Source: Spirochaetia bacterium (GTDB lineage Bacteria > Spirochaetota > Spirochaetia > SZUA-6 > Bin103). From it: 64,000 nt of DNA. This document shows positions 29,143 through 62,001 of the stretch, in pieces. The stretch is taken from assembly GCA_965203515.1 (NCBI GenBank), contig OZ241907.1, forward strand, positions 1,437,730 to 1,501,729, given 5' to 3'. Within the stretch, counting starts at the first letter, position 1. Each line of letters starts with the position of its first letter. Under the pieces are notes generated by a model. The model did no database searches. It saw nothing but the letters and a program-made list of their open reading frames with translations, and was not told where the DNA came from. The position numbers and the translations under genes are program-made.

Positions 29143-29171
29143 TTGACTCAACTACTTTCCATGGTTATACT
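29143..29171 (+). promoter_or_regulatory. consensus-like sigma70 promoter, leaderless transcript for DUF222/HNH copy 1
   Basis: TTGACT (29143-29148), 17-nt spacer, TATACT (29166-29171). The ATG at 29178 is only 6 nt after the -10. Confidence 0.55.
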
Positions 29172-29177
29172 TATTCC

Positions 29178-30569
29178 ATGAACGGCACTCGTTCCGACAC
29201 CGCCGACGCAGCCATCACGACCACCGTTTCAGCTCTCTCCGACGACCGCCTGCTGGAGCGGACCAAGGAACTGTCCGGCATCGAACACCAGCTCGAAGTC
29301 GTCGTCATCGACCACCTGCGCGAGATAGATAAGCGCCACCTGTACCTGCGCCGCGGGTTCTCAAGCCTCTTCGATTACGCGGTCCGCGAGCTCGGATACA
29401 GCGACGCCGCCGCTTGGCGGCGCCTCAAGGCGATGCGCCTCTGCGCCGACATCGACGGCGTGCGCGAGCGCCTGCAGGACGGCTCGATGACCCTGAACGC
29501 CGCCGCGCAGTTGCAGAACGCCTTTGATCGGCAGGAGCGCAACAGGGATCGCGCGGCGCGCAGCGCGCCGGGCGAGGACGGGTTCGGGGCCGCCGCGCGG
29601 TCGCAGGACGGCTCGGCGCCGGGGCCGACTCAGCCGGCGGAACGGAAGCCGGCGCCGGTGCTGGACCGGTCGGCGCGGCGGGCGCTGGTGGAGCAGGCGG
29701 CCGGCAAGAGCAGCCGGCAGGTGATGCAGTTGCTGGCCGAGGTGGACCCGGAGATGACGGCGCCGCCGGATCGGGTACGCCCGCTCGGCGCCGGGCGCTG
29801 GGAGCTCAAGGCGGTCATCGACGATGAGTGCCGGCGCGGTTTGGAGCTGCTCAAGGGCCTCCTGTCCCACGTCGATCCACACATGACGTTGGGTCAGCTC
29901 ATGGGGCGGCTGGTGCGGGAAGGGCTCGACCGCCACGACCCGGCCCGTCCGCCGCGCGGGAGCCGCACCGGCTCACACGCCGCAGGCGCCGAGCAGACTT
30001 CGGCGGCGAAGACGCAGGCGGCCAGCTCGGCCCAGGCGGCCGGGCAGCCGGGGAACGAAGCGGCTTCGCCGTTGAAGGCGTACCTCGGCCCGGAACACCC
30101 GGACACTTCGGCAGCGAAGCCGGCGGGCGATACCACTTCGGCGCCGAAGCAGGATGCCAACGCGGACAGCGCCGCTCCTTCGGCGGCGAAGGTATCGGCC
30201 CAGGCGACGGGGCAGCCGGGAGACGAAGCCGCTTCGCGGCTGCAGGCGGACCGCTGCCCGGACACTTCGGCGCCGAAGACGCGGTGCCTCGGCCGGCAGG
30301 CTGCGGCGTGTGCAGAGCGGGCGGCTGGCGCGACCGGCCGCTCCATCCCGGCGGCGGTCAAGCGCGCGGTCTGGCGGCGCGACCGGGGCCGCTGCAGCTA
30401 CGTCGACCGCACCAGCGGGCGCTGCTGCGGCTCTCAACACCTGCTGCAGATCGATCACGTCGTGCCGTACGCCCAGGGCGGCGCCGCCGAGCCGAACAAT
30501 CTCCGACTGCTGTGCGCCGCGCATCACCGCCACCGCCACGCAGGCACCGGATTCGGCCGCCCCGGCTGA
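29178..30569 (+). CDS. DUF222 + HNH endonuclease domain protein (REP13E12-like), copy 1
   Basis: N-terminal DUF222-like region and C-terminal HNH (CSYVDRTSGRCCGSQHLLQIDHVVPYAQGGAAEPNNLRLLCAAHHRHRH). The central part is low-complexity with TSAAK/ASPLKA repeats. About 90% identical to 60565..62001. Confidence 0.8.
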   Translation: MNGTRSDTADAAITTTVSALSDDRLLERTKELSGIEHQLEVVVIDHLREIDKRHLYLRRGFSSLFDYAVRELGYSDAAAWRRLKAMRLCADIDGVRERLQDGSMTLNAAAQLQNAFDRQERNRDRAARSAPGEDGFGAAARSQDGSAPGPTQPAERKPAPVLDRSARRALVEQAAGKSSRQVMQLLAEVDPEMTAPPDRVRPLGAGRWELKAVIDDECRRGLELLKGLLSHVDPHMTLGQLMGRLVREGLDRHDPARPPRGSRTGSHAAGAEQTSAAKTQAASSAQAAGQPGNEAASPLKAYLGPEHPDTSAAKPAGDTTSAPKQDANADSAAPSAAKVSAQATGQPGDEAASRLQADRCPDTSAPKTRCLGRQAAACAERAAGATGRSIPAAVKRAVWRRDRGRCSYVDRTSGRCCGSQHLLQIDHVVPYAQGGAAEPNNLRLLCAAHHRHRHAGTGFGRPG

Positions 30570-30703
30570 GGATCGTCAGGCGCCGGTCCCGTTCAGCCCG
30601 CTGCTGCCGAAGGCGGAAACCGCGATCAGGATCGCCGAGATCAAGTCGGCATATCAGGGCAGGGCGCTTGCCGGCCGGCGGGCCGCCGGGGGAGACTGGC
30701 GGC

Positions 30704-31852
30704 ATGAAGATCGCACGGATCGAGACGCACGTCGTCCGGGGCGGACGCCGCAACCTCTGCATAATCCGCATCGAGTCGAGCGACGGCTTCGTCGGCATCG
30801 GCGAATCGGGGCTGACCGGCCGCGAGCTGGCCGTGCGCGGCGCGGTCGACCACTTCCGGGAGTTCCTGACCGGCCGCGACCCGCGCCGCATCGGGGCGAT
30901 CTGGCAGGAGGTCTACCGCAGCCAGTACTTCGAGGGCGGACGCGTGCTCACCGCGGCGCTGTCGGCGATCGACATAGCCCTGCACGACCTGGTCGCCCGC
31001 TCGCTGGGCGTGCCGGTCTACCAGCTCCTGGGCGGCCGGCAGCGCGACCGCGTGCCGTGCTTCGCCACCACCCGGCGCGGCTTCGGCGCGGAGGCGGTGT
31101 CCGACGTGGTGGGCTTGGTCGACGACGGCTGGCCGTGCGTGCGGCTGCCGGTGCCGGTCGACGACAAGGCCGGCGTCTTCGATCCGCGCGGGTCGATCGG
31201 CGCGGCGGCCGAGACGCTGATCGCGGCCCGCCAGGCGATCGGCCGCCGGGCGGCGCTCGGCATCGATTACCACCACCGCCTGTCGGTGGCGGAGGCGGCC
31301 AGCTTCTGTCAGGCGATGCCGCCCGGCACCATCGACTTCCTGGAAGAGCCGATCCGCGACGAGACGCCGGCGGCCTATCAGGCGCTGCAGCGCATGACGC
31401 ACGTACCGATGGCGATCGGCGAGGAGTTCGCCAGCAAGTGGCAGTTCCTGCCCTACCTGGAGGCCGGCATCCCGGCGTTCGCGCGAGTCGACATCTGCAA
31501 CGTCGGCGGCTTTACCGAGGCCATGAAGGTCGCCGGCTGGTGCGAGGCGCATTACGTCGACCTGATGCCGCATAACCCGCTGGGGCCGGTGAGCACCGCC
31601 GCCAACCTCCATCTGGCCGCCGCCTCCGCGCAGTACGCGTGGCTTGAGGATCGCGGTTCGGAAGGGCTCAACCACTTCGACCGGGAGATGTTCCCGGTCA
31701 TGCCGTTGCTCGACGGGGTCACCTACGCGGTGCCGGACGGCCCGGGCCTTGGCGTCGAGTTCGACCCGGAGGCGCCGCTGGCCAAGGAGCCGTTGCAGCT
31801 CTGGGAGGCGCCCCACCTGCGCCGGCCGGACGGCTCGTACACCAACTGGTAG
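30704..31852 (+). CDS. enolase-superfamily dehydratase (mandelate racemase/muconate lactonizing family; D-galactonate/D-mannonate dehydratase-like)
   Basis: MKIARIETHVVRGG...; metal ligands in the typical DxH...E...D spacing (IDYHH, LEEPI, CNVGG); SD GGGGGAG. Confidence 0.75.
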   Translation: MKIARIETHVVRGGRRNLCIIRIESSDGFVGIGESGLTGRELAVRGAVDHFREFLTGRDPRRIGAIWQEVYRSQYFEGGRVLTAALSAIDIALHDLVARSLGVPVYQLLGGRQRDRVPCFATTRRGFGAEAVSDVVGLVDDGWPCVRLPVPVDDKAGVFDPRGSIGAAAETLIAARQAIGRRAALGIDYHHRLSVAEAASFCQAMPPGTIDFLEEPIRDETPAAYQALQRMTHVPMAIGEEFASKWQFLPYLEAGIPAFARVDICNVGGFTEAMKVAGWCEAHYVDLMPHNPLGPVSTAANLHLAAASAQYAWLEDRGSEGLNHFDREMFPVMPLLDGVTYAVPDGPGLGVEFDPEAPLAKEPLQLWEAPHLRRPDGSYTNW

Positions 31853-31901
31853 CCCTGCCTGACAGCCCTGCCTGGTCGCGCTGCCGCTCCGTCCGGCGGA
31901 C

Positions 31902-33128
31902 CTACTCCCGCTTGACCCGCACCCGGAATCCGCGCGGTATCTCCCTGACGTCCCGATCCGTGGCGATGATCGCGTAACCGCCGCCGGAGTGGCTGGTCGT
32001 CCGGCCCGTACCCAGCGCGTCATAGCGGTCGAGCACGGCATCGATCTCCGCGTCGGTGCTGAGCGGCAGTATCTCCCTCCACGTGTCGTGGGTCCGGGTC
32101 AGACACCGCCCCAGTGCATCGAGGTCCCGGTTCAGGATGGCGTCGTAGCAATCCCTGCCCGCGGCGCCCAGCTCCCGAATCGCCGCCGGCGTGAAGTTCC
32201 GAATCGCCAACGGATCGTATCCGGCCGGCGTCTCGCCGATCGGCGCCAGGACCAGGTGCTCCTGCAGCCACGCGCAGACGCCCGCATCGGTAGTCGACTC
32301 GATCTTCTTCGGCCAATACCCCTTGTGCACGCCGTGATCGTAATCGAGCCGGCTGACGCCGGGATGGGTGAGACCGACGTGATCCTGGCTCCCCGACAGG
32401 TAGCCGCTTCGGTGCGCAGGGTCCCGATACCCGTTCGTCAGCTCCCTGCCGTTCTCGACGTGGTACAGCAGGACCGCCAGCTCCTCCGCGGGCAGGTCGG
32501 TGCGCAACCCCTTGCCGACCAGATCGCTCCATACCTTGCGGGTACTGGTGGCAAGGCCGGAGTGCGCGAAGAGATCCGGCCGATATTCGATGCGGACGAC
32601 CGTCGCCGACCCGGGTCCATACCGGTTCACGTACGGCTGGTCGATCCATCCGCCGGCCAGACAGAGCCGGTAGGGAAGATGACGGCCGCTCTTCGCCCGC
32701 AATTCGGTCGAACTCCTGCCTGGCAGGCCCGGGTGCGGCTCCCGCTTCAGGACCACGTACTCGACGCCCAACGACCGGCACAGCTTCCGCTTGCCGGGCG
32801 TGTGGCCATCTTCGTTGACCACGAAGTAATCCGGGCGAATGGCCGTCAACTCATTGCGGAAGTCGAGCATGCCGAAGCCGGTGGCGATCATCGCCTCCTT
32901 GACCGGCTTGAGGTTCCGTACGATGTACGCGCGTTCCTCCTGACCATAGGTTGGATCGACCTGCTTCAGCATCCTGATGCTGGCGTCCGTACCGATCACC
33001 ACGTACAGATCGCCGAACGCCGATGCCTGCATGAGAAACTCGAGATGTCCCGCGTGAAACAGATCGAAACATCCGCTCACCATCACCTTCTTGTGGTTCA
33101 CCTTCTTGTCGTTCGCCATCATCTCCAT
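31902..33128 (-). CDS. bifunctional nucleotidyltransferase (cytidylyltransferase-like, HxGH) / GHMP-family kinase
   Basis: N-terminus VMVSGCFDLFHAGHLEFL is the PF01467-type H-x-G-H motif (TagD/RfaE-II-like). The C-terminal half has a GHMP-like P-loop remnant (HSGLATSTRKV) and a TSHSGGGYAII tail. Gene GC of about 60% versus about 72% nearby. Confidence 0.5.
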   Translation of the reverse strand: MEMMANDKKVNHKKVMVSGCFDLFHAGHLEFLMQASAFGDLYVVIGTDASIRMLKQVDPTYGQEERAYIVRNLKPVKEAMIATGFGMLDFRNELTAIRPDYFVVNEDGHTPGKRKLCRSLGVEYVVLKREPHPGLPGRSSTELRAKSGRHLPYRLCLAGGWIDQPYVNRYGPGSATVVRIEYRPDLFAHSGLATSTRKVWSDLVGKGLRTDLPAEELAVLLYHVENGRELTNGYRDPAHRSGYLSGSQDHVGLTHPGVSRLDYDHGVHKGYWPKKIESTTDAGVCAWLQEHLVLAPIGETPAGYDPLAIRNFTPAAIRELGAAGRDCYDAILNRDLDALGRCLTRTHDTWREILPLSTDAEIDAVLDRYDALGTGRTTSHSGGGYAIIATDRDVREIPRGFRVRVKRE

Positions 33129-34402: not shown

Positions 34403-34429
34403 GCGCTACGTCTCGCGCGCCGGCAAACC

Positions 34430-35149: not shown

Positions 35150-35171
35150 GTTGATCGTCCTCCTCCAGCGC

Positions 35172-35825: not shown

Positions 35826-35829
35826 GGTA

Positions 35830-37775: not shown

Positions 37776-37778
37776 CGT

Positions 37779-38459: not shown

Positions 38460-38478
38460 GGGCGGGACGCGCGAACGC

Positions 38479-40680: not shown

Positions 40681-40707
40681 TCCATTCTCATCAAGGAGGT
40701 CTCCCCC

Positions 40708-49716: not shown

Positions 49717-52578
49717 TTGATCGCCCGCCGCGTTCGCGGCCGCGGCTGGCTGGCGATCGCGCTGGCGGCGGCGGCCACGCTCAGCGTGGCGCTGCTCGCC
49801 TCCACGCCGATGTACGCCGACGGGGTGCTGCAGCGGCTGCTCACCCGCGACCTGGAGCGCCACCAGCAGCGCACCGGGCGCTACCCCGGCGCCGCCGTCC
49901 TGGAAATCGATCTGTATGGGCTGCGCCGGCGCGCCGAGCGCGCGCCCTACGTCCATGAGATCGACCGGGAGCTGACCGAGCGCCTGGTGCCGGCGCTGCG
50001 GGTGCCGATCATCGCCGAGATGCGGCAGTTGCGTATGGACTACCTGTACGACGTCCGGCCCGCCGAGCACGGCGAAACCAAGGTGTTCGCCCGGGTCGAG
50101 GCGATCGAGCACCTGGACCGGCACGTGACGATACGCCACGGCCGCATGTTCGAGCCGCGCCCGGCCGGTCCGGCCGGAGACGGGCCGGGCGGAGACGGTA
50201 CGGCCGTCTATGAGGCGATCGTGACCGAGGAGGCGTTTCGCGATCTGGATCTGCAGCTTGGACGCACCTATCAGTTGTATGACCTGCTCGGCCACGTGCC
50301 GCGGCTGCGCATCGAGGTGGTGGGGACATTCACCAAGAGCGACCCGCGCGACCCGTTCTGGTTCGGCCGCTTTGCCCGGCTTTCCACCAGCTACCTGATC
50401 GACTTCCCGACCTTCGAGCGCGACTTCCTGCAGACCGAGGCGCGCAACATGACGCGCGCCTGGTGGCACTACGCCATCGACTACCACGAACTGACGATCC
50501 GCGACGTGCCGAACGTGATGCGGCGCCACGCGGACTACGTGCGCCTGGCGTCGCCCGCCGGCGTCAGCTTCAGCTTTGCCATCGCCCCGCTCCTGGAATC
50601 CTATCTGCTGCGCGCGGCCACGCTGCGGCGGACCCTGTCGTTCCTGCAGATACCGTCGGCGTTGCTGCTGTTGCTGTTCGTGGCGATGCTGTCGCAACTG
50701 GTCATCGACGGCGACCGCGCGGAGATCGCCGTGCTGAAGAGCCGCGGCGCCGCCGGCCGGCAGATCCTCTCCGCCTACCTGATCGAGGCGCTGCTGTTGG
50801 GGGCGGTCGGCCTGGGGCTCGGCCTGCCGCTGGCGGTGCTGATCGTGCGGGTGATCGGCGCCTCCAACGGCTTCCTGGACTTCGTGGCGCGGCCGGCGCT
50901 GCCGCTGCTGCTGAGCTGGCGCATGCTGGGCTACGCCCTGCTCGGCGTTGCGATCTTCGTCGGCTCGCTGGTCGTGCCGCTGGCGCGCGCCACCGGCCTG
51001 TCGATCGTGGGCCTGAAGAGCCGGCACGGGCGCGCGCCGCGCTCGCTGCCGTGGCAGCGGTACGGGCTCGACGCGCTGCTGCTGGCCGTGGCCGGCTACG
51101 CGTTCTTCTCGTTCCGGCAGCGGCAGGCGATCCGGGAGCTGATCCCGGCCGAATCGGCGCCGCTCGACCCGCTGCTGTTCCTGGCGTCGACCGCCTTCAT
51201 CCTGGGCGCCGGTCTGCTGACGCTGCGCCTGTTTCCGATCGCGGTGCGCGCCGTCTTCCGCCTGGGGCGCGGCGTGTGGCCGCCGGCCCTGTACGCCGGT
51301 CTGGTGCAGGTGGGCCGCTCCCGCGGGCGCGAGTACTTCGCCATGACCTTCCTGATCCTGACCCTGGGGGTGGGCCTTGCCAGCAGCACCACCGCCCGCA
51401 CGATCAATCGGAGCGCGGAAGACGACATCTCCTATCAGGTGGGAGCGGACGTCGTGCTGCTGCCGGAGTTCCAGAGCGACGCGCCGCCGGCGAGCGAGGA
51501 GGATCTCGACCCGCTGGCGGCCCCGGCGGCGCCGACCGGCGCGGCGCCGGCGGTCCAGTACCGGGCGCCGCCGCTGGAGCCGTTCCGGGCGCTGCCAGGC
51601 GTGGAGCGGCTCACCACCGTGTTCCGCGCCCCGTCCGCCGGCATGGTGATCCCCGGCAACCGGCGGGTGGCGGTGCAGGTGATGGCGGTGGTGCCGCACG
51701 AGTTCGGACGCATCACCTGGTTCCGCAACGATCTGCTGCCGGCCCACCTCAACCGTCACCTCAACCTGATCGCCGACGCGCCGACCGGCGTCCTCCTGTC
51801 GGCCGACGCCCGCGACCGGCACGGCGTGCGGCTCGGCGACCTGGTGCGGCTCACCTGGAAGCGGCAACTGCCGATCCAGGCGGCGGTGCTCGGCTTCGTC
51901 GACTATTGGCCATCGTTCGACCCGACCGCCGCGGCCGGCGGCGGCCGCCCCCCGCCGACGTTCGCGGTGGCCAACTTCGATTACGTGTTCGCCAAGATGG
52001 CCACGGAGCCGTACGAGCTGTGGATCGACCTGCAGCCGGGCGCGCCGAGCGGTCCGCTGTACGCCGCCGTGGAGGAGCGGGAGCTCCGCGTGCTGGAGAT
52101 CCGGGATACCTCGCAGCTCACCATCGAGGCCAAGAACGACCCGCTGCTGCAGGGCACCAACGGCGTCCTCACCTTCGGCTTCATCACCGCCGTGCTGGTG
52201 AGCGTGACCGGCTACGTGCTGTTCCTGGTCTTCGCCTTGCGCGAGCGCGCCCTGCAGTTCGGACTGCTGCGCGCCCTGGGTCTGCGCCGGCGGCAGGTGG
52301 TCGGCATGCTGGTGCTGGAACAGCTCCTCACCGGCGGGTTCGCGATCGTCGCCGGGCTGGCGATCGGGCAGCTCGCGGCGCTGCTGTTCGTGCCGCTGCT
52401 GCAGCTTGCCGGGCCTGCCGCCGAGCAGCTCCTCCCCTTCCGGGTGGTCGCCCTGCGCAGCGACTACCTCCGCTTCTATGCGCTGGCGCTCATCATCATG
52501 GCGGCCGGCGGGGCGCTGTTCCAGTCACTGGTGCGCCGGCTGCGCGTCCACGAGGCGCTCAAGCTGGGCGAGGAGTGA
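49717..52578 (+). CDS. large FtsX-family ABC transporter permease (two FtsX domains, MacB/DevC-like)
   Basis: 953 aa with two 4-TM FtsX modules and large extracytoplasmic domains. No cognate ATPase is adjacent. Confidence 0.7.
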   Translation: MIARRVRGRGWLAIALAAAATLSVALLASTPMYADGVLQRLLTRDLERHQQRTGRYPGAAVLEIDLYGLRRRAERAPYVHEIDRELTERLVPALRVPIIAEMRQLRMDYLYDVRPAEHGETKVFARVEAIEHLDRHVTIRHGRMFEPRPAGPAGDGPGGDGTAVYEAIVTEEAFRDLDLQLGRTYQLYDLLGHVPRLRIEVVGTFTKSDPRDPFWFGRFARLSTSYLIDFPTFERDFLQTEARNMTRAWWHYAIDYHELTIRDVPNVMRRHADYVRLASPAGVSFSFAIAPLLESYLLRAATLRRTLSFLQIPSALLLLLFVAMLSQLVIDGDRAEIAVLKSRGAAGRQILSAYLIEALLLGAVGLGLGLPLAVLIVRVIGASNGFLDFVARPALPLLLSWRMLGYALLGVAIFVGSLVVPLARATGLSIVGLKSRHGRAPRSLPWQRYGLDALLLAVAGYAFFSFRQRQAIRELIPAESAPLDPLLFLASTAFILGAGLLTLRLFPIAVRAVFRLGRGVWPPALYAGLVQVGRSRGREYFAMTFLILTLGVGLASSTTARTINRSAEDDISYQVGADVVLLPEFQSDAPPASEEDLDPLAAPAAPTGAAPAVQYRAPPLEPFRALPGVERLTTVFRAPSAGMVIPGNRRVAVQVMAVVPHEFGRITWFRNDLLPAHLNRHLNLIADAPTGVLLSADARDRHGVRLGDLVRLTWKRQLPIQAAVLGFVDYWPSFDPTAAAGGGRPPPTFAVANFDYVFAKMATEPYELWIDLQPGAPSGPLYAAVEERELRVLEIRDTSQLTIEAKNDPLLQGTNGVLTFGFITAVLVSVTGYVLFLVFALRERALQFGLLRALGLRRRQVVGMLVLEQLLTGGFAIVAGLAIGQLAALLFVPLLQLAGPAAEQLLPFRVVALRSDYLRFYALALIIMAAGGALFQSLVRRLRVHEALKLGEE

Positions 52579-52629
52579 CTGGGCGAGGAGTGAACGAGCC
52601 GGCCGCCTGCCGCATGCGGACCGGCCGGC
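52564..52629 (+). repeat. perfect 15-bp tandem duplication of the FtsX stop region (ctgggcgaggagtga x2) followed by a GC hairpin (GCCGGCCG...CGGCCGGC with internal CCGCATGCGG palindrome)
   Basis: Direct reading. The first TGA is the gene stop; the duplication creates a second in-frame copy of the last 4 codons plus stop. Confidence 0.8.
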
Positions 52630-52654
52630 AATCGGTATAGAATGGCGCCGCGCG

Positions 52655-53665
52655 ATGGCTGAACTACCGACCACGGTCACCCCGCCGGCGCCGCCGGCCG
52701 AGACGGCCGCCTCGCAGGCGCTGCCGGCCGATCTGCGCCGGCGCCTGCGCGCCGAGCGCTGGCAGCGCGTCAGGCAGATGCGGACGCTCTACCTGCTGTT
52801 CCTGCTGCCGCTGGCGATCTTCGTCGTCTTCCACTACCTGCCGATGTACGGCAACATCATCGCCTTCAAGGACTTCCGGCTCGGCCGGGGCTTCTGGGGC
52901 AGCCGCTGGGTCGGCCTGCAGCACTACGAGGACTTCTTCCGCAACCCGTACGCGTGGCGGATCATCCGCAACACCGTGGTCATCAGCGGCCTCAAGCTGC
53001 TGTACGGCTTTCCGGTGCCGATCCTGCTGGCGCTGCTGATCAACGAGCTGAACAGTCAGTCCTTCAAGAAGACGGTGCAGACCGTCTCCTACCTGCCGCA
53101 CTTCATGTCCTGGGTCATCCTGGCCACGATCCTGCACGAGATCCTGTCGCCGCAGAGCGGCCCGCTCGCGCAGATCGCCATCTGGATGGGCCGGCCTCCG
53201 CCGGAGGTGCTCACCACCGGCTCCCTGTTCCGGCCCATGCTGATCGTCACCGAGATCTGGAAGGAGATGGGCTGGCAATCGGTGATCTATCTGGCGGCGC
53301 TCGCCTCGATCGACCCGGAGCTCTACGAGTCGGCCACCGTCGACGGCGCCAACCGGGTACAGCGGGCGGTCCACATCACGCTGCCGTCGCTGCTGCCGGT
53401 CATCACCATCCTGGCGATCCTGCGCATCGGCAACCTGCTCAACGCCGGCTTCGACCAGATATTCAACCTGTACAATCCGCTGGTCCGTGAGGTGGCCGAC
53501 ATCATCGACACCTTCGTCTACCGGCGTGGCCTGGGCGGCGAAGGCGGCCGCCACCAATACGACTTCGCCGCCGCGGTGGGGCTGTTCAAGAGCGTGATGG
53601 CGGTCCTGCTGATCCTGGGCGCCCACAAGATCGCCCGCCGGCTGACCGGCCAGGGGGTCTGGTAG
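52655..53665 (+). CDS. carbohydrate ABC transporter permease (LplB-like)
   Basis: BPD_transp_1 with EAA loop (LYESATVDGANRVQRAVHITLPSL). Confidence 0.8.
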   Translation: MAELPTTVTPPAPPAETAASQALPADLRRRLRAERWQRVRQMRTLYLLFLLPLAIFVVFHYLPMYGNIIAFKDFRLGRGFWGSRWVGLQHYEDFFRNPYAWRIIRNTVVISGLKLLYGFPVPILLALLINELNSQSFKKTVQTVSYLPHFMSWVILATILHEILSPQSGPLAQIAIWMGRPPPEVLTTGSLFRPMLIVTEIWKEMGWQSVIYLAALASIDPELYESATVDGANRVQRAVHITLPSLLPVITILAILRIGNLLNAGFDQIFNLYNPLVREVADIIDTFVYRRGLGGEGGRHQYDFAAAVGLFKSVMAVLLILGAHKIARRLTGQGVW

Positions 53666-53666
53666 T

Positions 53667-54572
53667 TTGGCCGAGGCACGGGCGCTGCGGCGGCGGAGCG
53701 CGGGAGCGGTCGTCTTCGACCTGGGCAATACGCTGCTCATGACGCTGTTCGCGCTGTCGATCCTGCTGCCGTTCTGGATCATGCTGGTGCTCTCCTTCAC
53801 GCCCAACGAATGGGCCAACGACCTGGGTCTGAAGCTCTGGACCCGCGAGTGGAGCACGGCGACCTACCGGTTCGCCCTCTCCAGCTACGGCGACGTGGTG
53901 CAGGCGTACGGCAACTCCATCCTGCGCACGGTGCTGGGCACGGCCGCGATCCTGGCCGCCACGGTGGCGGCCGCCTATCCGCTGTCGAAGAAGCGGCTGC
54001 CGGGCCGGACCTTCATGACGGTCGTGATCCTGATCACCATGGTCTTTTCCGGCGGCTTCATCACCCTGTGGCTGGTGGTGCGCAGCGTGGGACTGCTCGA
54101 CTCGCGCTGGGCGCTGATCCTGCCCAGCATGGCCAACGGCTTCTACATCCTGATCATGCGCAACTTCCTGATGACCATCGACGACGCCTACGAGGAGGCG
54201 GCCTTGATCGATGGGGCCGGCTACCTGCAGATACTCACGCGCGTGGTGCTGCCGCTCTCCAAGCCGGTGCTGGCGGTGATCGCCCTGTGGGCGGCGGTGT
54301 TCTATTGGAACGAGTGGTTCCACGCCCTGATCTTCATCAACGACGAATCGAAGCTGGTGCTGCAGCTCATCCTGCGCCGCATGATGCGGCTGCTCACCTC
54401 CGACGATCTGTTCGACATGCTCGACTGGGCCGATCAGCAAGGCATCATCCTGCCGACCAAGGCGGTGCGCGCCGCGGTGATGATCCTGACCATCGGCCCG
54501 ATCGTGCTGGCCTATCCGTTCCTGCAGCGCCACTTCGTCAAGGGCATCTTCGTGGGCGGGCTGAAGGGATAG
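53667..54572 (+). CDS. carbohydrate ABC transporter permease (LplC-like)
   Basis: EAA loop AYEEAALIDGAGYLQILTRVVLPLSKP. Confidence 0.8.
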   Translation: MAEARALRRRSAGAVVFDLGNTLLMTLFALSILLPFWIMLVLSFTPNEWANDLGLKLWTREWSTATYRFALSSYGDVVQAYGNSILRTVLGTAAILAATVAAAYPLSKKRLPGRTFMTVVILITMVFSGGFITLWLVVRSVGLLDSRWALILPSMANGFYILIMRNFLMTIDDAYEEAALIDGAGYLQILTRVVLPLSKPVLAVIALWAAVFYWNEWFHALIFINDESKLVLQLILRRMMRLLTSDDLFDMLDWADQQGIILPTKAVRAAVMILTIGPIVLAYPFLQRHFVKGIFVGGLKG

Positions 54573-54662
54573 GCCAGGATGACGATGACGTATCCGTATA
54601 CCGGCGCGTTGCCGCCGGTTTGCGCCGGACGGCGCAGAAAACACATTTCACAGGTGGTACGA

Positions 54663-56306
54663 ATGAAACGAGTACTATTCATGACTTGCGCCGCAGCGCT
54701 GCTGCTGGCTCCGATGGCGCTTTACGCCGAAGGCCAGGACGAAGCCGGCGCGGCCGAGGTGACCGAGATGACGTGGATGAGCCAGTACACCGACTCCTAC
54801 GCATTCAAGGACATGCAGGAGCGGTTCGGCGTCACGGTCACCAGCAACGGCATCTTCGAGAACGACGGCGAGAAGCGCAACCTGATGCTGGCCGCCGGCG
54901 AGCAGCCGGACTTCGGCAACTGGTGGGGCAATCCGGTCGAGTTCTATCAGGATGGAGTCAACCGGCCCATACCCAAGGCGTGGGTCCGCGAATACGCGCC
55001 CAACATCGCCCAGATGTACGACGACTATCCGCTGGCCTGGAACACCTGGGAGAACCCCGACAATCCCGACGAGCTGCTGGCGATCAACGGCATCTCCCTC
55101 AACACCGACGGCAACCTGATGCTGCCGTTCTTTCGCTACGACCGCGCCGCCGAGGTCGGGCTGGAGATGCCCGGCTATGACGACGGCAAGGTCTCCCTCG
55201 ACGTGCACGGCCGGGTCTTCTACTACGACTACGACATGACCTGGGCCGAGATGGGCGACCTGCTGCGCGGCTATCGCGATGTGCAGCCGGGCACGGTCGA
55301 GATCCCGCTGGGCGCCTGCAACCTCACCCACTGGTGCCTCAATCAGTGGCTGGGCGCGTTCGGCATTCGCGGCGACGGCACCAACCGTGAGGTCGACGGT
55401 CAGCTCTACTACTTCCATACCGACCCCGGCATGAAGGAGTTCATCAAGGCGTTCGGCGCGTGGTTCGAGGAGGGGCTGATCGACCGCGAGCTGCCGACCC
55501 TGAACCGCGACAAGTACTGGGAGAAGGGCCAGGCCGGCCTGTACGGCGTGCAGTCGGAGCCGTACACCAACGCCGGTCAGACCTATGCCATGTACCGGAC
55601 CCCCAACAACATGGTGCCGGCCGAGGAGCTGGGGCAGCCCGGCGCCGAGGTGGTCGGCATCCCGCCGATCATCGGCCCCGGCGGCGAACGCGGCGGACGC
55701 GCCTACTCGCCGATCGCCGGCGTCGGCAACTACAAGTTCTACGCCAGCGCGTCGGTCGATGACGCCAAGCTGATCAGGATGCTGGAGATGTTGGACTTCT
55801 ACATGGGCACCATGGAGGGGTGGATCATCTTCCGCAATGGCCAGGACGGCATCCACTTCGACTGGGACGGCGACCCGTACGAGTCGTTCGCCCGCAACCG
55901 GCCGGAGAGCGAGCTCCCCGCAGGGCAGGGCCACGGCGGCGTATCGGCCTACCCGGTCTTCTACACGCTGGACCGGCTCAAGATCATCGCTCCCCGGCCG
56001 CTGGCCGACTTCCAGAGCGGCTACGCGCTGGTCGACGGCGGCGCCAACGTCTACACGTTGCGCGCGCACCGCGCCGACTTCTTCACCGAGACCGAGTACG
56101 AAGACCTGCGCCAGCGCTTCATGGCGACCTTGAACACGATGTGGGAGGAGTTCTTCTACCGGGGAATCACCGGCCAGATCGACGTCGACGCCGAATGGGA
56201 CGCCTACGTCCAGGCGTGGAGCGACGCCGGCGGGGCGGACATCGTCGCCGAGCTCGCCAAGGCGCCGATCGTCAACGAGTTCCGGCAGGGCCGACGCGTC
56301 TACTGA
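54663..56306 (+). CDS. extracellular solute-binding lipoprotein (LplA-like sugar/oligosaccharide ABC substrate-binding protein)
   Basis: AGGTGG SD, signal peptide with Cys (VLFMTC), approx. 545-aa SBP_bac_1-like. Confidence 0.75.
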   Translation: MKRVLFMTCAAALLLAPMALYAEGQDEAGAAEVTEMTWMSQYTDSYAFKDMQERFGVTVTSNGIFENDGEKRNLMLAAGEQPDFGNWWGNPVEFYQDGVNRPIPKAWVREYAPNIAQMYDDYPLAWNTWENPDNPDELLAINGISLNTDGNLMLPFFRYDRAAEVGLEMPGYDDGKVSLDVHGRVFYYDYDMTWAEMGDLLRGYRDVQPGTVEIPLGACNLTHWCLNQWLGAFGIRGDGTNREVDGQLYYFHTDPGMKEFIKAFGAWFEEGLIDRELPTLNRDKYWEKGQAGLYGVQSEPYTNAGQTYAMYRTPNNMVPAEELGQPGAEVVGIPPIIGPGGERGGRAYSPIAGVGNYKFYASASVDDAKLIRMLEMLDFYMGTMEGWIIFRNGQDGIHFDWDGDPYESFARNRPESELPAGQGHGGVSAYPVFYTLDRLKIIAPRPLADFQSGYALVDGGANVYTLRAHRADFFTETEYEDLRQRFMATLNTMWEEFFYRGITGQIDVDAEWDAYVQAWSDAGGADIVAELAKAPIVNEFRQGRRVY

Positions 56307-56335
56307 TCCGATACCGTTCGGTTCTACCGGTTATA

Positions 56336-56370
56336 GAGGAGCGGCCGTATCGGCCGCTCCTCGCTTCTAT
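56336..56370 (+). terminator. rho-independent-type terminator after the SBP gene (perfect 11-bp stem GAGGAGCGGCC/GGCCGCTCCTC, 5-nt loop, T-containing tail)
   Basis: Direct reading. Confidence 0.6.
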
Positions 56371-56373
56371 GCT

Positions 56374-56979
56374 GTGGGGCAAACGGTGAAAGCGCTCACG
56401 CGGTCAGGCAACCCTGAGTTCGCGGCGTTGCCGGCGCCCGACGGCGAGTGGACGGCGGAAGACTATCTCCGGCTGAGCGGCCGCACCAATCGGCTCATCG
56501 AGTTCACCTGCGGATGCATCGAGGTGCTGCCCATGCCGACCGACCAACACCAAGCCATGGTCGAGACCCTGTTCCTGCTGCTGCGCGCCTACGCGGCGCG
56601 GACGCACGGCAAGGCGCGCTTCGCCCCGTTGCGGCTCCGCATCGGCCCCGCACGGTACCGGGAGCCCGATATTCTCTTCCTCCGCTCGGCGCAGGATCCG
56701 CGCCGTCAGGATCGCTTCTGGACCGGCGCCGATCTGGTGGCCGAGGTGGTGAGCCCCGACGATCCGGAGCGCGACCGCACCGCCAAGCGCTCCGAGTACG
56801 CCGCGGCGGGAATCCCGGAGTATTGGATCGTCGATCCGCTGGCGGCGTCGATCACGGTGCTGCGGCTCGAAGGCAGCGTCTACGTCGAGAACGGCCGCTT
56901 CCGGCGCGGGCAGACCGCCCGGTCCGCGCTGCTCGACGGGTTCCGTGCCGACGTGTCGGAGATCCTCGACGCCGAGTAG
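56374..56979 (+). CDS. Uma2-family endonuclease (DUF820, PD-(D/E)XK)
   Basis: ...CIEVLPMPTDQHQAMVETL...DILFLRS...GADLVAEVVSP...EYWIVDP is the Uma2 signature. Confidence 0.75.
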   Translation: MGQTVKALTRSGNPEFAALPAPDGEWTAEDYLRLSGRTNRLIEFTCGCIEVLPMPTDQHQAMVETLFLLLRAYAARTHGKARFAPLRLRIGPARYREPDILFLRSAQDPRRQDRFWTGADLVAEVVSPDDPERDRTAKRSEYAAAGIPEYWIVDPLAASITVLRLEGSVYVENGRFRRGQTARSALLDGFRADVSEILDAE

Positions 56980-57034
56980 CGAGTAGCGACGCCTCAGCCG
57001 TCAACGCCCGGTCCGGCCGACGGCGCCGACCGAG

Positions 57035-58555
57035 TCAGCTCAGCGTCACGCGCGCGTCGGCCAGCAGCGCCGGCCGCTCCGCGCCGGCGTCCAGCGTCAC
57101 CTCGATCCGATTCTGGCCCGGCACGATCGCGGCCGGTTCGACCGGCGCGGTGAGCAGGTCGCCCTCACCCGCCTGCAGCGCCAGCGGCTGACCGTTGACG
57201 GCGGCGCCGATCCGCGCCGCCGCGGCGTTCCAGACCCGCAGCTCCACCGCGGCCGAGGTCGGCCCGGGTTCGGCGCGCGGGTCCTCTCCCACCGTCAGGT
57301 ACTCCGCCACCGGCCGGCCCGGAAAGAGCTGCCGCGGGTGCTGCGGCGTGAGGGTCGGCACCCGCAGGAAGCGCTCGTGCGGAAAGCCGTCGCCGGCGAT
57401 GCGCGCCACGCCGCGCACGCTCACGAAGTAGCGCCGTTCGGCGCCCCGAATCGTCTCCATCTCGCCGAGCTGCCGCAGGATCGGGCTGGCCGGATTGAAG
57501 AAGTTGTACAGGTAGACGCCGTCGGCGCCCGCGCGCCACACGTTGGCCGCGCGCGCCCGGTACGAAGCGTCGCTGCCGCGCGGAGTGGTGAAGGTGCCGG
57601 TCTTGACGTCGTGCGAGCCCGGCTCCTTCACGCGCGATTCGTCGAGCGCCGGATAGACCATGACGCCGTAGCGGCGCCCCAACTCGACCGAGGTCTCCCA
57701 GCGGTCGAGCTGCAGGTAGCCGGCGGGAATGAGCAGGTCGAGCAGGTCATCGGCCAGCCACCGCTCCAGGTCGAGTCCGATCGCCCGGCAGTAGGGGACC
57801 GAGTCCGGCAGGCGCGCCGCCACCAGGATCGGCCGGCCGCGGCGCTCGCCCACCTCCTCGGTCATGCGCCGGATGCGCCGCACCAGGCCGGTCATCAGGT
57901 CGCGCTCCACGCCGCTGCACGGAAAGCCGCGCGCCGGCTCGTGGAAGAAGACCGGATGCCGGTAGAAGTCGAGCTCGATGCCGTCCACGTCGTAGCCGCG
58001 GCAGACCTCCTCCACGAACCGGAAGGTGAGGTCGCGTATCTCCGGTTCGGCAAAGTCGACCGCCGACCAGCCGCCGTACCGGGGGCGCGTCTCCGGCGTG
58101 GCGAGCAGGTACTGCGGATTGGCCTGCTTGAAGTCGTTGGCGGCGAACATCTCGGCCGAGTAGCCGCCGCCCTGGCTGTCGTGCGTGTCGTTCATGCGCA
58201 GCGACCAGAAGAACTCCTTGCCCTGCGCGTGGATGAAGTCGTTCATCACCCGCAGCGGGTCGATGCCGGCCGCCGCCAACGCCCCCATCAGGTTGCGGTC
58301 GAACCACTCGCCTTCGACCGTGAAGAGCTGGCCCACCCTGGTGAGGTGGGTGAACATCGTGAAGCCCGAGCACCACGTCGAGTAGAACACCGTGTCGACC
58401 TGGGAGTCGACCAGCGGCCCGGTCCGGTACTTGAGCAGTTCCGCTTCGGTCGGCGCCTCGATCAGGTAGACCGGCTCGTTGCCGTCGTTGTTGAGGATGA
58501 TGCGCCGGCGGCGGCGCTTGCGCGTCTCGCGCTCGGCCCGGAACGCGGCGGTCAC
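57035..58555 (-). CDS. putative glycoside-hydrolase-like TIM-barrel protein (family unassigned)
   Basis: RIILNNDGNEP...FFWSLRMND... resembles GH-like/DUF4015-type hydrolases. The GTG start overlaps the upstream stop (GTGA). Confidence 0.45.
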   Translation of the reverse strand: MTAAFRAERETRKRRRRRIILNNDGNEPVYLIEAPTEAELLKYRTGPLVDSQVDTVFYSTWCSGFTMFTHLTRVGQLFTVEGEWFDRNLMGALAAAGIDPLRVMNDFIHAQGKEFFWSLRMNDTHDSQGGGYSAEMFAANDFKQANPQYLLATPETRPRYGGWSAVDFAEPEIRDLTFRFVEEVCRGYDVDGIELDFYRHPVFFHEPARGFPCSGVERDLMTGLVRRIRRMTEEVGERRGRPILVAARLPDSVPYCRAIGLDLERWLADDLLDLLIPAGYLQLDRWETSVELGRRYGVMVYPALDESRVKEPGSHDVKTGTFTTPRGSDASYRARAANVWRAGADGVYLYNFFNPASPILRQLGEMETIRGAERRYFVSVRGVARIAGDGFPHERFLRVPTLTPQHPRQLFPGRPVAEYLTVGEDPRAEPGPTSAAVELRVWNAAAARIGAAVNGQPLALQAGEGDLLTAPVEPAAIVPGQNRIEVTLDAGAERPALLADARVTLS

Positions 58556-59925
58556 GCGCCCACCCTCGCGATCGCCCGATCGGCCGCTCCGGGCCACAGG
58601 CCGAAGCCGGGCGGGTCGCCCGGGTCGCCGGCGCGCAGCGCGTCGGCGTGGGCGGCCACCTTGCGGAACGCCGCGGCGTACCGTTCGATCACCTCCGCCC
58701 GGTCGTGCTTGAACCAGGGGACGTGGAAGGTGCGCGCGTAGATGCCCTCCGCGACCGGCAGGCCGTCGGTCGGCTCACCGTTGGTCGGCGCGCCGCGGCC
58801 GTAGACGTCGAGGTCCCGGAACAGCGGGTGCAGGTGCAGCGGCAGGTTGATGCCGGCCCCCAGGCGCCCCACCCCCTCGGCCTCCAGGGCGTCCAGAAAC
58901 CGGGTCAGGGAGAGGCCGTCCAGTTCCTCGGCCGCGTACAGGCCGTGCGGATTGTACCAGCCGCCCATGGTGCTGCCGGTCGACTCGTCGACGCGGTGCG
59001 CGCGGAGGCCCGGGCAGCCGGCGAGCAGGTCCCAGAAGCGGTTCATGGCCGCCCTGATCTCGCGCCCGCGATCGTCGAAGTGGCGGAGCTGGACGCGCGC
59101 GATCGCGGCGTTGAGTTGCTGCATGCGGTACTTGTAGCCGCCCAGCGGAACGCCGGCGGTGCGGCGCAGCTCGGGGTCGGTCAGTTCGCGCTGGCCGCGC
59201 GAGTAGTGGCCCCAGGCGAGGGCGCGCTCGTACATGTCGCGCTCCGCGGTCACCAGCACGCCGCCCTCCCCGGCCGGCAGCGCCTTGCCGCTCATCACCG
59301 ACATGGCGGCCGCAGCGCCGAAGGTGCCTACCTTGCGCCCGCGGTAGAGCGCGCCGTGGGCGTGCGAGACGTCCTCCAGCACGGGGATGCCGCGCGGCTC
59401 GGTGATGGCGAGCACCGCGTCCATGTCGGTGGGGTGGCCGCAGTAATGGACCACGATCACGACCTTGGTGCGCGGCGTGAGGCGCCGCTCCAGGTCGGCG
59501 GGGTCGATGCAGAGCGTGTCCGCTTCGACGTCCGCAAAGCGGACCGCGGCGCCGAGCGACAGCGCCGGCGCCGCGGACGCCCAGTAGGTGGTGCTCTGGC
59601 AGACCACCTCATCCCCGGCGCGCACGCCCAGCGCGTAGAGCGCCGCCTGGATGGCGCCGGTGCCGGTGTTGTGGGCCAGGGCGTAGGCCGCGCCCTGCCA
59701 GGCGGCGAACTCGGCCTCGAACCGCCGGGTGACGTCGAAGCCCGACATGCGGCCGGAGTGCAGCACCGCCAGCACCGCCTGCTCGTCCTCTTCCGTGACG
59801 ATCGGCCACGTGAACAGATCATCCGGCACCGAGCCGGCGGCGATCGCGGGCGGACCGCCCAGCAGCGCCGGCCGCTGCTCGACGACGCTATCGGTGCGGA
59901 CCGTGCGGACCGGGGAAATCGGCAT
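58552..59925 (-). CDS. DegT/DnrJ/EryC1/StrS-family PLP-dependent sugar aminotransferase
   Basis: ...MSGFDVTRRFEAEFAAW...VHYCGHPTDMDAV... and the PLP-Lys region SVMSGKALPAGEGG. Confidence 0.8.
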   Translation of the reverse strand: MPISPVRTVRTDSVVEQRPALLGGPPAIAAGSVPDDLFTWPIVTEEDEQAVLAVLHSGRMSGFDVTRRFEAEFAAWQGAAYALAHNTGTGAIQAALYALGVRAGDEVVCQSTTYWASAAPALSLGAAVRFADVEADTLCIDPADLERRLTPRTKVVIVVHYCGHPTDMDAVLAITEPRGIPVLEDVSHAHGALYRGRKVGTFGAAAAMSVMSGKALPAGEGGVLVTAERDMYERALAWGHYSRGQRELTDPELRRTAGVPLGGYKYRMQQLNAAIARVQLRHFDDRGREIRAAMNRFWDLLAGCPGLRAHRVDESTGSTMGGWYNPHGLYAAEELDGLSLTRFLDALEAEGVGRLGAGINLPLHLHPLFRDLDVYGRGAPTNGEPTDGLPVAEGIYARTFHVPWFKHDRAEVIERYAAAFRKVAAHADALRAGDPGDPPGFGLWPGAADRAIARVGA

Positions 59926-59943
59926 CAGAACCTCCGCAACGAT

Positions 59944-60190
59944 CGTATGACGACGAACCGCGCCGCGCAACCTCGGCGACTGCCTGGCGCGCATCGAGCA
60001 CACCGACGATCGGTTCGTGTTGCTCAAGAACGGCAAACCGGTCGCCGAATTGGTTCCGGTTGGTTCGGCGGCAGGTTCGCGCACCGCCACGCTGCGGGAG
60101 GTCTGGGATGCACTCTCCAGCGTTCCCGTCGACGCGCGCTTCGCCGACGACCTGCAGGCGGTCAACTCCGCCGATCGGGTCTTGGACAAC
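59944..60190 (+). pseudogene. Phd/YefM-family antitoxin remnant, 5'-truncated (no start codon), 3' end fused to a REP13E12 fragment
   Basis: NLGDCLARIEHTDDRFVLLKNGKPVAELVPV...LREVWDALSS matches Phd/YefM from about residue 10 onward. An in-frame stop lies immediately upstream. Confidence 0.5.
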
Positions 60191-60400
60191 CCATGGGATT
60201 CGTCCTCGATACCGAGCAGACTTCGGCGGCGAAGGTATCGGCTCAGGCGGCGCCGCCGCCGGGAGACGAAGCCGCTTCGCCGCTAAAGGCGGACCGCGTC
60301 CCGGATCGCCCGCACTTCGGCAGCTACGCCGGCGGGCGACATCACTTCGGCGCCGAAGGCGCGGCGCCTCGGCCGGCAGGCTGCGACGGGCGCAAAGTGG
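60190..60400 (+). repeat. fragment of a third DUF222/HNH (REP13E12-like) gene, central TSAAK-repeat region only
   Basis: ...EQTSAAKVSAQAAPPPGDEAASPLKADRVPDRP...[13 protein letters not shown] equals the central segment of 60565..62001. Confidence 0.6.
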
Positions 60401-60529
60401 GCTGACGACACTCCGCGCTTTGTCTATTCTCCCCGTTTGCGCTGGTCCAACAAGCGAGAATCCCGCCATCTCCGCGCCTACGCGATCAGCTTCTGCCGAG
60501 ACTTCCATCAGGAAACCGTTGCGGATAAC

Positions 60530-60558
60530 TTGACTCAAATACTTTCCATGAGTATACT
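60530..60558 (+). promoter_or_regulatory. consensus-like sigma70 promoter, leaderless transcript for DUF222/HNH copy 2
   Basis: TTGACT, 17-nt spacer, TATACT, then ATG 6 nt later. Identical architecture to 29143-29171. Confidence 0.55.
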
Positions 60559-60564
60559 TATTTC

Positions 60565-62001
60565 ATGAACGGCACTCGTTCCGACACCGCCCACGCAGCC
60601 ATCACGACCACCGTTTCCGCCCTCTCCGACGACCGCCTGCTGGCGCGGACCAAGGAACTGTCCGGCATCGAACACCACCTCGAAGTCGTCGTCATCGACC
60701 ACCTGCGCGAGATCCAGAAGCGCCGTCTGTATCTGCGCCGCGGGTTCTCCAGCCTGTTCGATTACGCGGTGCGCGAACTCCGTTACAGCGACGCCGCCGC
60801 TTGGCGCCGCCTCAAGGCGATGCGCCTCTGCGCGGACATCGACGGCGTGCGCGAGCGCCTGCAGGACGGCTCGATGACGCTCAACGCGGCCGCGCAGTTG
60901 CAGAACGCCTTCGACCGGCAGGACCGCAACAGGGATGGCGCGGCGCGCAGCGCGGGCGGGGACGGGGACGCAGCGCGGTCGCAGGACGGCTCGGCGCTGG
61001 CGCTCGCTCCGGGACCGGCTCAGCCGGCGGAGCGGAAGCCGGCTCCGGTGCTGGACCGGTCGGCGCGGCGGGCGCTGGTGGAGCAGGCGGCCGGCAAGAG
61101 CAGCCGGCAGGTGATGCGGTTGCTGGCCGAGGTCGACCCGGAACTGGCGGTGCCGGCGGATCGGGTGCGCCCGCTGGGCGCCGGGCGCTGGGAGATCAAG
61201 GCGGTCATCGACCATGAGTGCCAGCGCGGCTTGGAGCGGCTCAAGGGCCTCCTGTCCCACGTCGATCCGCACATGACGTTGGGGCAGATCATGGAGCGGC
61301 TGGTGCAGGAAGGGCTCGACCGCCACGATCCGGCCCGACCGCCGCGCGGGCGGCGCACCGGCGCCCGGGCCGCTGGTGCCGAGCGGACTTCGGCGGCGAA
61401 GACGCCGGCGGCCTCGGCTCGCGGCGCAACTTCGGCAGCGAAGCAGGAGGCCCGATCGGACAGCGCCGCTCCTTCGGCGGCGAAGGTATCGGCTCAGACG
61501 GCGGAGCAGCCGGCGGCGGAGCCGGGAGATGAAGCCGCTTCGCCACTGAAGGCAGACCGCGTCCCGGAACGCCCGGACACTTCGGCGGCGAAGACGGCGG
61601 GCGACATCACTTCGGCGGCGAAGACGCGGCGCCTCGGCCGGCCGGCTGCGGCGAGTGCGAAGCGGGCTGCGCCGCCGCCGCGGACCCAAACTTCGGCAGC
61701 GAAGGCGGGCGGCGGGACCGGCCGCGCCATCCCGGCGGCGGTCAAGCGCGCGGTCTGGCGGCGCGACCGGGGCCGCTGCAGCTACGTGGACCGCACCAGC
61801 GGGCGCCGCTGCGGCTCCCAACACCTGCTGCAGATCGATCACGTCGTGCCGTACGCCCAGGGCGGCGCCGCCGAGCCGAACAATCTCCGACTGCTGTGCG
61901 CCGCTCATCACCGCCACCGCCACGCAGGCGCCGGATTCGGCGGCCGACCCGGCGAGGATCGTCAGGCGCCGGATCGATCCAGTCGACGGAGCGCAGGCTG
62001 A
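60565..62001 (+). CDS. DUF222 + HNH endonuclease domain protein (REP13E12-like), copy 2
   Basis: N- and C-terminal domains nearly identical to 29178..30569. The central repeat region differs in repeat number. Confidence 0.8.
   Translation: MNGTRSDTAHAAITTTVSALSDDRLLARTKELSGIEHHLEVVVIDHLREIQKRRLYLRRGFSSLFDYAVRELRYSDAAAWRRLKAMRLCADIDGVRERLQDGSMTLNAAAQLQNAFDRQDRNRDGAARSAGGDGDAARSQDGSALALAPGPAQPAERKPAPVLDRSARRALVEQAAGKSSRQVMRLLAEVDPELAVPADRVRPLGAGRWEIKAVIDHECQRGLERLKGLLSHVDPHMTLGQIMERLVQEGLDRHDPARPPRGRRTGARAAGAERTSAAKTPAASARGATSAAKQEARSDSAAPSAAKVSAQTAEQPAAEPGDEAASPLKADRVPERPDTSAAKTAGDITSAAKTRRLGRPAAASAKRAAPPPRTQTSAAKAGGGTGRAIPAAVKRAVWRRDRGRCSYVDRTSGRRCGSQHLLQIDHVVPYAQGGAAEPNNLRLLCAAHHRHRHAGAGFGGRPGEDRQAPDRSSRRSAG

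Follow-up and report, generated by a model that had tools for sequence, protein, structure and literature searches.

Two HNH-nuclease repeat genes of a Spirochaetia genome and the dispersed multicopy family to which they belong

Two genes encoding HNH-nuclease proteins lie in direct orientation in a 64,000-nucleotide (nt) stretch of DNA from a Spirochaetia bacterium (contig OZ241907.1, positions 1,437,730 to 1,501,729; hereafter the window, to which all positions refer unless another sequence is named), and between them they bracket a segment of 31 kb. The question raised by this arrangement is whether the pair is a recombination substrate that exposes the enclosed segment to deletion or amplification, as an earlier note on this DNA proposed, or whether the two genes are separate members of a repeat family. 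Genes of the REP13E12 type, which are multicopy HNH repeats, were already known in 1999. In a 2026 preprint, genes of this type are still without a defined biological function (PMC13061034). Comparison with related genomes favours the second answer, namely that the window genes are probably old, immobilised members of a large, multicopy and selfish-like family of HNH-nuclease cassettes in an uncultured high-GC lineage.

The pair and its family

Repeat finding together with blastn delimits two direct repeats in the window, at 29140-30586 and 60527-61972. Two blocks align, 29140-30023 with 60527-61413 (90.2% identity over 891 nt) and 30320-30586 with 61704-61972 (94.8% over 270 nt), and they are separated by a rearranged middle of shuffled short repeats; the longest exact run common to both copies is 86 nt, followed by runs of 73 and 61 nt. 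This pairwise alignment had been named in advance as a check on the pair, and its result, 90-95% identity between the delimited repeats, does not bear out the description of the copies as near-identical. At the protein level 73% of positions agree overall and 91% in the core formed by the N-domain and the HNH domain; ~8% of N-domain nucleotides differ, so the copies do not differ only in the number of their internal repeats, as had been supposed. What the copies have in common runs from the -35 box to 17 nt beyond the copy 1 stop codon, which makes the repeat a gene-sized cassette around one open reading frame (ORF):

29178-30569, plus strand: copy 1 ORF, 463 amino acids (aa), with the N-domain at residues ~13-253, an xSAAK linker at ~254-388 and the HNH domain at ~389-456
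60565-62001, plus strand: copy 2 ORF, 478 aa, with the same architecture as copy 1 and identical to database protein P0025

The nearest genomes are metagenome-assembled genomes (MAGs) labelled Spirochaetia, not actinobacteria, and more than 2000 homologs were found, many per genome. The complete 4.56-Mb chromosome of a relative, OZ241863.1, holds 45 family loci and OZ251573.1 holds eight, which are more divergent; a 4.105-Mb sister contig that is 94-99% identical to the window encodes at least nine distinct family proteins, and the 4,135,234-nt contig with the copy 2 protein P0025 has at least three further paralogs (at least four family proteins). Many family copies are truncated or frameshifted. 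A census of the family had also been named beforehand as a check, and these counts confirm a dispersed multicopy repeat; comparison among the genomes shows the family at many unique sites, and closely related genomes differ through gain and loss of copies. No relatives came from the plasmid, phage and viral collections, the lone plasmid match being an unrelated short stretch.

A tree built from the conserved core places copy 1 among sister-genome copies (93%) rather than beside copy 2 (91%), and at least two subfamilies are mixed across genomes. Because copy 1 is nearer to a copy at another place in a sister genome than to copy 2, the window genes are two family members that lie 31 kb apart and not a duplicated pair. 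The ratio of nonsynonymous to synonymous substitution (dN/dS) between copies 1 and 2 is 0.26 for each of the two domains, N-terminal and HNH, and 0.75 for the linker, and its median among 24 copies of OZ241863.1 is 0.29. Judged by these substitution ratios, the ORF is shown to be under purifying selection, so the protein matters, either to the success of the element or to the host; the low ratios also keep rival explanations alive.

The proposal that the pair acts as a REP13E12-like substrate, driving deletion, excision or amplification of the 31-kb segment, draws on the direct orientation, the 1.45-kb length of the repeats and the identical runs of 86, 73 and 61 nt, which could seed RecA recombination. 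It also has a precedent in Mycobacterium tuberculosis, where large inversions have their breakpoints in 13E12 repeat genes, which are also gene-conversion hotspots (PMC13157036; PMC13061034). Three sister contigs argue otherwise. In two sister genomes, represented by L059 (equivalent to window 20117-40529) and L063 (to window 37822), copy 1 continues into the interior as it does in the window, and in a third contig, L060 (window 51013-64000), the interior continues into copy 2 as it does in the window; no deletion, amplification or rearrangement of the 31 kb is found among these three junctions, all of which are collinear with the window. Identity of 90-95% lowers homologous recombination, the pair is two among many copies rather than a recent duplication, and the interior holds a LysW amino-acid biosynthesis cluster together with transporters, so that its loss would probably be costly. 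A three-way comparison of copy 1 and copy 2 with a copy 2 ortholog gave no clear gene-conversion tract; the HNH region seemed to be unduly divergent between the copies, probably through an alignment artefact at the C-terminal tails. The copies could recombine, but this is not their main significance, and as an account of the locus the recombination-substrate proposal is quite unlikely. The 31 kb do not form a defined unit of mobility or excision, and the direct orientation and spacing of the copies are probably incidental, since the copies are ~90% identical and are two among many scattered family members. Mycobacterial REP13E12 elements are attachment targets of phiRv1-type prophages; in the ORF lists and the annotations of neighbouring genes, neither window copy has an integrase or prophage next to it, and no phage attachment site was seen, though no att-site analysis was made.

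The cassette, its protein and the linker palindromes

Both ORFs are preceded by the same promoter, which the earlier note had described and a promoter scan bears out:

29143-29171, plus strand: copy 1 promoter, TTGACT-17-TATACT, with 10/12 consensus matches and the ATG 6 nt downstream
60530-60558, plus strand: copy 2 promoter, TTGACT-17-TATACT, with the ATG 6 nt downstream

Each is the sole sigma-70-like match in its ~2-kb region, where 0.1 would be expected. In both copies 6 nt lie between the -10 hexamer and the ATG and a Shine-Dalgarno sequence is missing, and this promoter-ATG geometry is kept in more than 30 paralogs and in relatives at 51-61% identity; on the strength of the geometry, a leaderless transcript is predicted for both copies. 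An operator-like palindrome in the promoter spacer was considered as a further element and dropped, as it differs between the copies.

The encoded protein is a two-domain molecule with a long, poorly structured middle. Pfam detects PF01844 (HNH) at residues 416-455 (32.8 bits) and 415-454 (34.1 bits), above the cutoff of 21.4 and with E values of 3e-8 to 8e-8, and the signature residues DH...N...H and the Cys residues are present in the sequence. For the N-terminal 261 residues there is no Pfam match even at E=10. Searches of NCBIfam, PHROGs and PADLOC report the HNH region only, and the sole PADLOC match is a weak one of that region to a generic type II restriction endonuclease model (E 8e-4 to 2e-3, 15.6-17.1 bits). 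An AlphaFold model built on 53 relatives contains a confident helical N-domain with a small beta-hairpin and a confident HNH domain: averaged in 10-residue blocks, the predicted local distance difference test score (pLDDT) reaches 81-98 for residues 21-120 and 161-260 and 92-96 for 391-450. Over 271-380 the linker scores 40-48, and ~115 inter-domain residues are modelled as disordered. The best fold matches are weak and fall on the helix-turn-helix (HTH) domains of ParB/KorB and on HNH enzymes with N-terminal DNA-binding domains such as McrA; as modelled, the N-domain is a helical HTH-type DNA-binding domain. The N-domain alone retrieves 7836 cluster representatives (50% identity clusters, E<=1e-3) among 1.8 billion proteins and thus belongs to a large, mostly unannotated family.

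Membership of DUF222, the domain named in the earlier note, was taken to mean a PF02720 score at or above the gathering score of 24.4 bits. Neither window protein matches PF02720 at E<=0.01, nor does the N-domain alone at E<=10. Sub-threshold DUF222 matches of 15.9-22.4 bits, over profile positions 6-126 of 306, come from five of 53 relatives, which are 35-42% identical, and since all of these matches fall on the same N-terminal helices, distant common ancestry is suggested. The comparison thus suggests that the window family is a remote relative of DUF222/REP13E12 and not a Pfam member of it. Of the earlier description, the direct orientation, the HNH domain, the shared promoter and the variable TSAAK-type linker stand and the DUF222 identity falls; the likeness to REP13E12 is reasonable in the sense of a multicopy HNH repeat gene, with kinship that is remote.

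The linker is marked by a palindrome, CTTCG-N4-CGAAG, which occurs 13 times in the window against 0.04 expected, every time within the two linkers or within a fragment of a third family copy described below:

29998-30278, plus strand: five CTTCG-N4-CGAAG palindromes in the copy 1 linker, each encoding xS(A)(A/P)K
61388-61704, plus strand: six CTTCG-N4-CGAAG palindromes in the copy 2 linker

Every xSAAK motif is encoded in this form, and among the fetched loci 228 such palindromes lie inside family genes and 7 outside. The Ser codon within the motif is TCG in 135 of 136 cases, compared with 32% elsewhere in the same genes; the codon before it ends in CT and is usually ACT, which makes up 6% of Thr codons elsewhere; and variable bases are confined to the four central positions. 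In one subfamily the linker cannot otherwise be aligned and the N-domain has a synonymous divergence (dS) of ~0.5 to the window copies, yet the palindromes persist there, ~72-84 nt apart. Retention at synonymous sites, together with persistence in unalignable linkers, points to a constraint at the DNA or RNA level, and the palindromes may be protein-binding sites, nicking sites or hairpins. The copy 1 linker folds as RNA moderately more stably than shuffled sequences (z = -2.4), which fits an RNA or a DNA role alike, and an Rfam search over 28000-63000 returned no RNA family. A second, opposite palindrome, CGAAG-N3-CTTCG, is found at 30085-30100 and 30249-30265 of the copy 1 linker, between CTTCG-N4-CGAAG sites; it encodes the EAAS of a DEAASPLKADR-type motif and leaves the linker rich in mutually complementary segments.

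The repeats may in addition have a role at the peptide level, because those of distant low-GC relatives often have a T-S-x-x-K core. Distant relatives known as proteins only (P0218, P0246 and P0261, some from apparently low-GC organisms) have different tandem repeats in the linker, often with this core, and by sequence a repeat-bearing linker looks family-wide.

Given that the N-domain resembles the palindrome-binding HTH of ParB/KorB, a more speculative proposal is that the 4-6 linker palindromes per copy are cis-acting sites for the cassette's own protein, so that the HNH nuclease would nick its own gene and start recombination that copies, homogenises or rearranges the family. The odds are well against it; were it true, such self-targeting would be a new mode of self-propagation for an HNH gene and could explain recombination hotspots of the REP13E12 type.

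Movement, decay and competing explanations

In OZ241863.1 the HNH genes sit in ~1.7-kb units with inverted ends and 8-10-bp target duplications, and the flanks turn unique beyond ~400 nt upstream and ~200 nt downstream of the HNH gene. In an alignment of more than 30 copies the units stop sharply on the right with ...TACATTTTGGAAATGCGCC and have GGCGCACTTCCAATTTGTTGGTA as their left end; the unit ends are imperfect inverted repeats, GGCGCACTTCCAATTTGTTGGTA on the left and GGCGCATTTCCAAAATGTAGGTA on the right when read as the reverse complement. Of the 16 two-ended units, 6 have exact target duplications of 6 nt or more and 4 have duplications of 8 nt or more, where permuted pairings give 0.13 and 0, respectively; duplications are CCATTCGTTG at L027, CCACCGTGT at L039, GCCGCCGGG at L030 and ACCGCGGG at L007. 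The same ends enclose an autonomous insertion sequence (IS) of the ISKra4 family at L042 (1436-2956), whose 467-aa transposase scores 216.8 bits with NF033572 (cutoff 205). This IS lies in the leader of another HNH unit, with a 9-bp duplication of its target, CTTCCGGGC. The HNH units carry no transposase of their own, and we infer that a transposase acts on them in trans. An autonomous transposon with HNH as its only gene had been the leading view and was dropped when the same ends were found around the ISKra4 transposase gene.

The HNH promoter is separated from the left end by a piece of an MmeI-like restriction-modification (RM) gene, which is in decay and has internal deletions that differ among copies. 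The longest version of this piece is at L016, where a 3.5-kb unit (946-4402) has an IS-type left end, a frameshifted MmeI/type IIG-like RM gene (ORF 1044-2879) and then an intact HNH gene; this unit is probably near the ancestral captured segment. It is concluded that in OZ241863.1 an RM-gene tail and an HNH gene were captured between ISKra4-type ends and then amplified as a non-autonomous unit. A scan of JGI metagenomes for the inverted-end sequence gave 0 matches. A 2-kb repeat adjoining three HNH units was considered as a candidate transposase gene and dropped, being a gene for a repetitive surface-type protein. At L025 (771-2933), as also at L002 and L023 of OZ241863.1, a gene for a 720-aa protein with GSGY(A/T)S(A/V)PTVTF-type repeats lies directly beside HNH units, which may reflect a preferred insertion neighbourhood or chance.

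The window copies have cassette edges of a different and more worn kind. The left edge of copy 2 is its -35 box and the right edge of family homology is 61972, where a remnant of a type I hsdS gene begins. Copy 1 is flanked by a leader and a tail:

29095-29142, plus strand: 5' leader of copy 1 (GCGCCGTCCGGCCAGCG...), conserved though diverged, lying before the -35 box; copy 2 is without a leader
30570-30666, plus strand: decayed 3' tail of the copy 1 cassette, without an IS-type inverted end, aligning to the 3' tails of L006 and L025 (tcaagatcgccgaga...)

The leader is shared with an unlinked sister-genome copy in L061, whose outer flanks are unrelated, and is homologous to the stretch that follows an internal 13-mer in the OZ241863.1 units; the diverged tail misses the IS-derived last ~30 nt.

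Related genomes record gain, loss and erosion at both loci:

27415-30666, no strand assigned: 3252-nt block missing from L062, containing one gene of an unannotated ~300-aa family and HNH copy 1
59951-60212, plus strand: N-truncated Phd/YefM-like antitoxin (59951-60192) and the first 7 codons (MGFVLDT) of a VapC/PIN-like toxin, with its ATG at 60193
60213-60404, plus strand: fragment of a third family copy, consisting of linker alone and holding two palindromes, joined in frame to the start of vapC as chimeric ORF 60193-60405
61973-62271, plus strand: type I hsdS remnant directly after copy 2; L060 has a 448-aa Methylase_S gene here, of which ~1 kb is missing in the window

L062, a related contig of 4.70 Mb, aligns to window 26140-27414 and then to 30667-31853 with 24 nt between the blocks, and only 94 nt separate its DAO gene from MR_MLE. 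Different deletions have removed the promoter and start of copy 1 in two sister genomes: L059 is missing window 29156-29320, and L063 is missing 29000-29512 and 30287-30452. Beside copy 2, homology of the window to L060 stops at 60212; L060 keeps a VapBC-like pair with a full toxin ORF and, at the site of the fragment, a family copy that is larger than the fragment, truncated at its 5' end but with the HNH domain (L060 9534-9880). The chimeric ORF was made by deletion. The fragment had been described as fused to a truncated antitoxin: the fragment itself is real, and its fusion is to the first 7 codons of the toxin, the antitoxin gaining only an out-of-frame tail. The L035 locus of OZ241863.1 has the same hsdS flank after an orthologous HNH copy, and because the junction of copy 2 with hsdS is common to the window, L060 and L035, the site is old. 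As read from the alignments, the deletions in copy 1 of the sister genomes and beside copy 2 of the window form the pattern of dispensable, decaying DNA.

Taken as a member of the selfish-like family, each cassette would consist of a short conserved leader, a strong promoter from which a leaderless mRNA is expected, one ORF and a short tail. Its protein, a helical HTH-type DNA-binding domain joined to an HNH nuclease by a flexible repeat-bearing linker, would bind specific DNA and nick or cut it, and would in this way favour maintenance of the cassette or its copying by recombination. The window copies, without IS ends, would have come by an older or different route and would now be decaying.

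Several observations weigh against this account. Purifying selection on many old copies is equally expected of a family useful to the host, and nuclease and DNA-binding activity are predictions from sequence and model. The link to ISKra4 is seen in one related genome, with one autonomous IS in ~400 kb sampled. The terminal 13-mer TTGGAAATGCGCC is not found anywhere in the window at up to 2 mismatches, and the window copies are without terminal inverted repeats; no target duplication was noticed on reading the cassette edges in the window, where no systematic search was made and the inserted block is composite. L062 could be without copy 1 because of a deletion of its own and not because the window gained an insertion, and the block at 27415-30666 holds a second repeated gene, so that its edges are not those of the HNH cassette alone. 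Copy 2 has kept its downstream hsdS neighbour in three genomes, a sign of stable residence rather than recent movement.

Two further explanations would account for the family without the selfish-like reading, or would shift the agent of its movement. The proteins might be nucleases that benefit the host, McrA-like type IV restriction enzymes or damage-induced repair enzymes that were passively amplified and kept for their usefulness. This would agree with the McrA-type order of domains and the weak fold matches to EcoKMcrA, ScoMcrA and TagI, with the many copies under purifying selection, with the RM neighbours (hsdS after copy 2 and the MmeI-like gene before the HNH gene of L016) and with the SOS induction of mycobacterial 13E12 genes (PMC13157036). 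It is unlikely, given that PADLOC recognises no defence family beyond the weak HNH match, that 45 loci in one genome are far above what is known for defence genes, that copy 1 is dispensable, being absent or promoter-deleted in three relatives, and that so many copies are truncated or frameshifted. Alternatively, the HNH protein might itself be the mobility enzyme, homing-type or transposase-like, moving its own cassette and acquiring IS ends secondarily. Copies without terminal inverted repeats (copy 1, copy 2 and that in L061) do share sharply bounded cassettes in unrelated sites, the RM fragment decays within the inverted-repeat-bounded units while the HNH ORF stays intact with a dN/dS of ~0.3, and the palindrome array could be a recognition site. 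Classical homing requires homologous flanks, which the dispersed sites do not offer, and the sole insertions with clear hallmarks use ISKra4 ends; to our knowledge, moreover, there is no HNH-only transposase, nor are HNH enzymes known to catalyse strand transfer. A self-moving HNH cassette is accordingly held to be improbable, and the reading of the window genes as immobilised members of a selfish-like family is retained.

Known systems and neighbouring repeats

The closest parallel is REP13E12 of M. tuberculosis and other actinobacteria, with which the window family shares multicopy repeats of ~1.4 kb, a helical N-domain with a C-terminal HNH domain and the lack of a defined function, as well as the sub-threshold alignment of the first ~100 DUF222 profile positions to the N-terminal helices of relatives of the window proteins. 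Unlike REP13E12, the window family has no Pfam DUF222 match, occurs in MAGs labelled Spirochaetia, reaches a far higher copy number (45 loci) and has both the linker palindrome array and its own leaderless-type promoter at each copy. It can be regarded as a distant REP13E12-like branch outside the actinobacteria. The units of OZ241863.1 resemble non-autonomous passenger IS, such as mobile insertion cassettes and transporter IS, in that the HNH gene lies between ISKra4-family ends with 8-10-bp duplications and no transposase; they differ in their unusually high copy number and in a passenger ORF that is intact and under purifying selection, and the window copies differ in having no such ends. 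OZ241863.1 therewith illustrates one route to 45 loci, by way of borrowed insertion-sequence ends. With HNH homing endonucleases and McrA-type enzymes the family has in common a DNA-binding module tethered to a C-terminal HNH domain and fold matches to HNH enzymes, and with homing endonuclease genes a patchy, selfish-looking distribution. It departs from both in being dispersed over unique chromosomal sites rather than tied to one target gene, in having no phage or viral relatives among those found and in matching no defence family.

For annotation, the window genes should be treated as repeat-family cassettes and not as a segmental duplication. A pair of repeats as such is ordinary; what is new here is the codon-embedded CTTCG-N4-CGAAG array, which, lying in coding sequence, points to a cis-acting role.

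A second repeated family lies next to copy 1. Between 24063 and 28478 the window holds three minus-strand copies (79-99% nt identity) of the unannotated ~300-aa gene, for example ORF 27578-28516, and these copies flank a DAO/SoxB-like gene at 26140-27414. The family has no Pfam, NCBIfam or PADLOC match and one weak PHROGs match (E 0.085). All three copies are missing from L062, which makes this a second repeated, possibly mobile family beside HNH copy 1.

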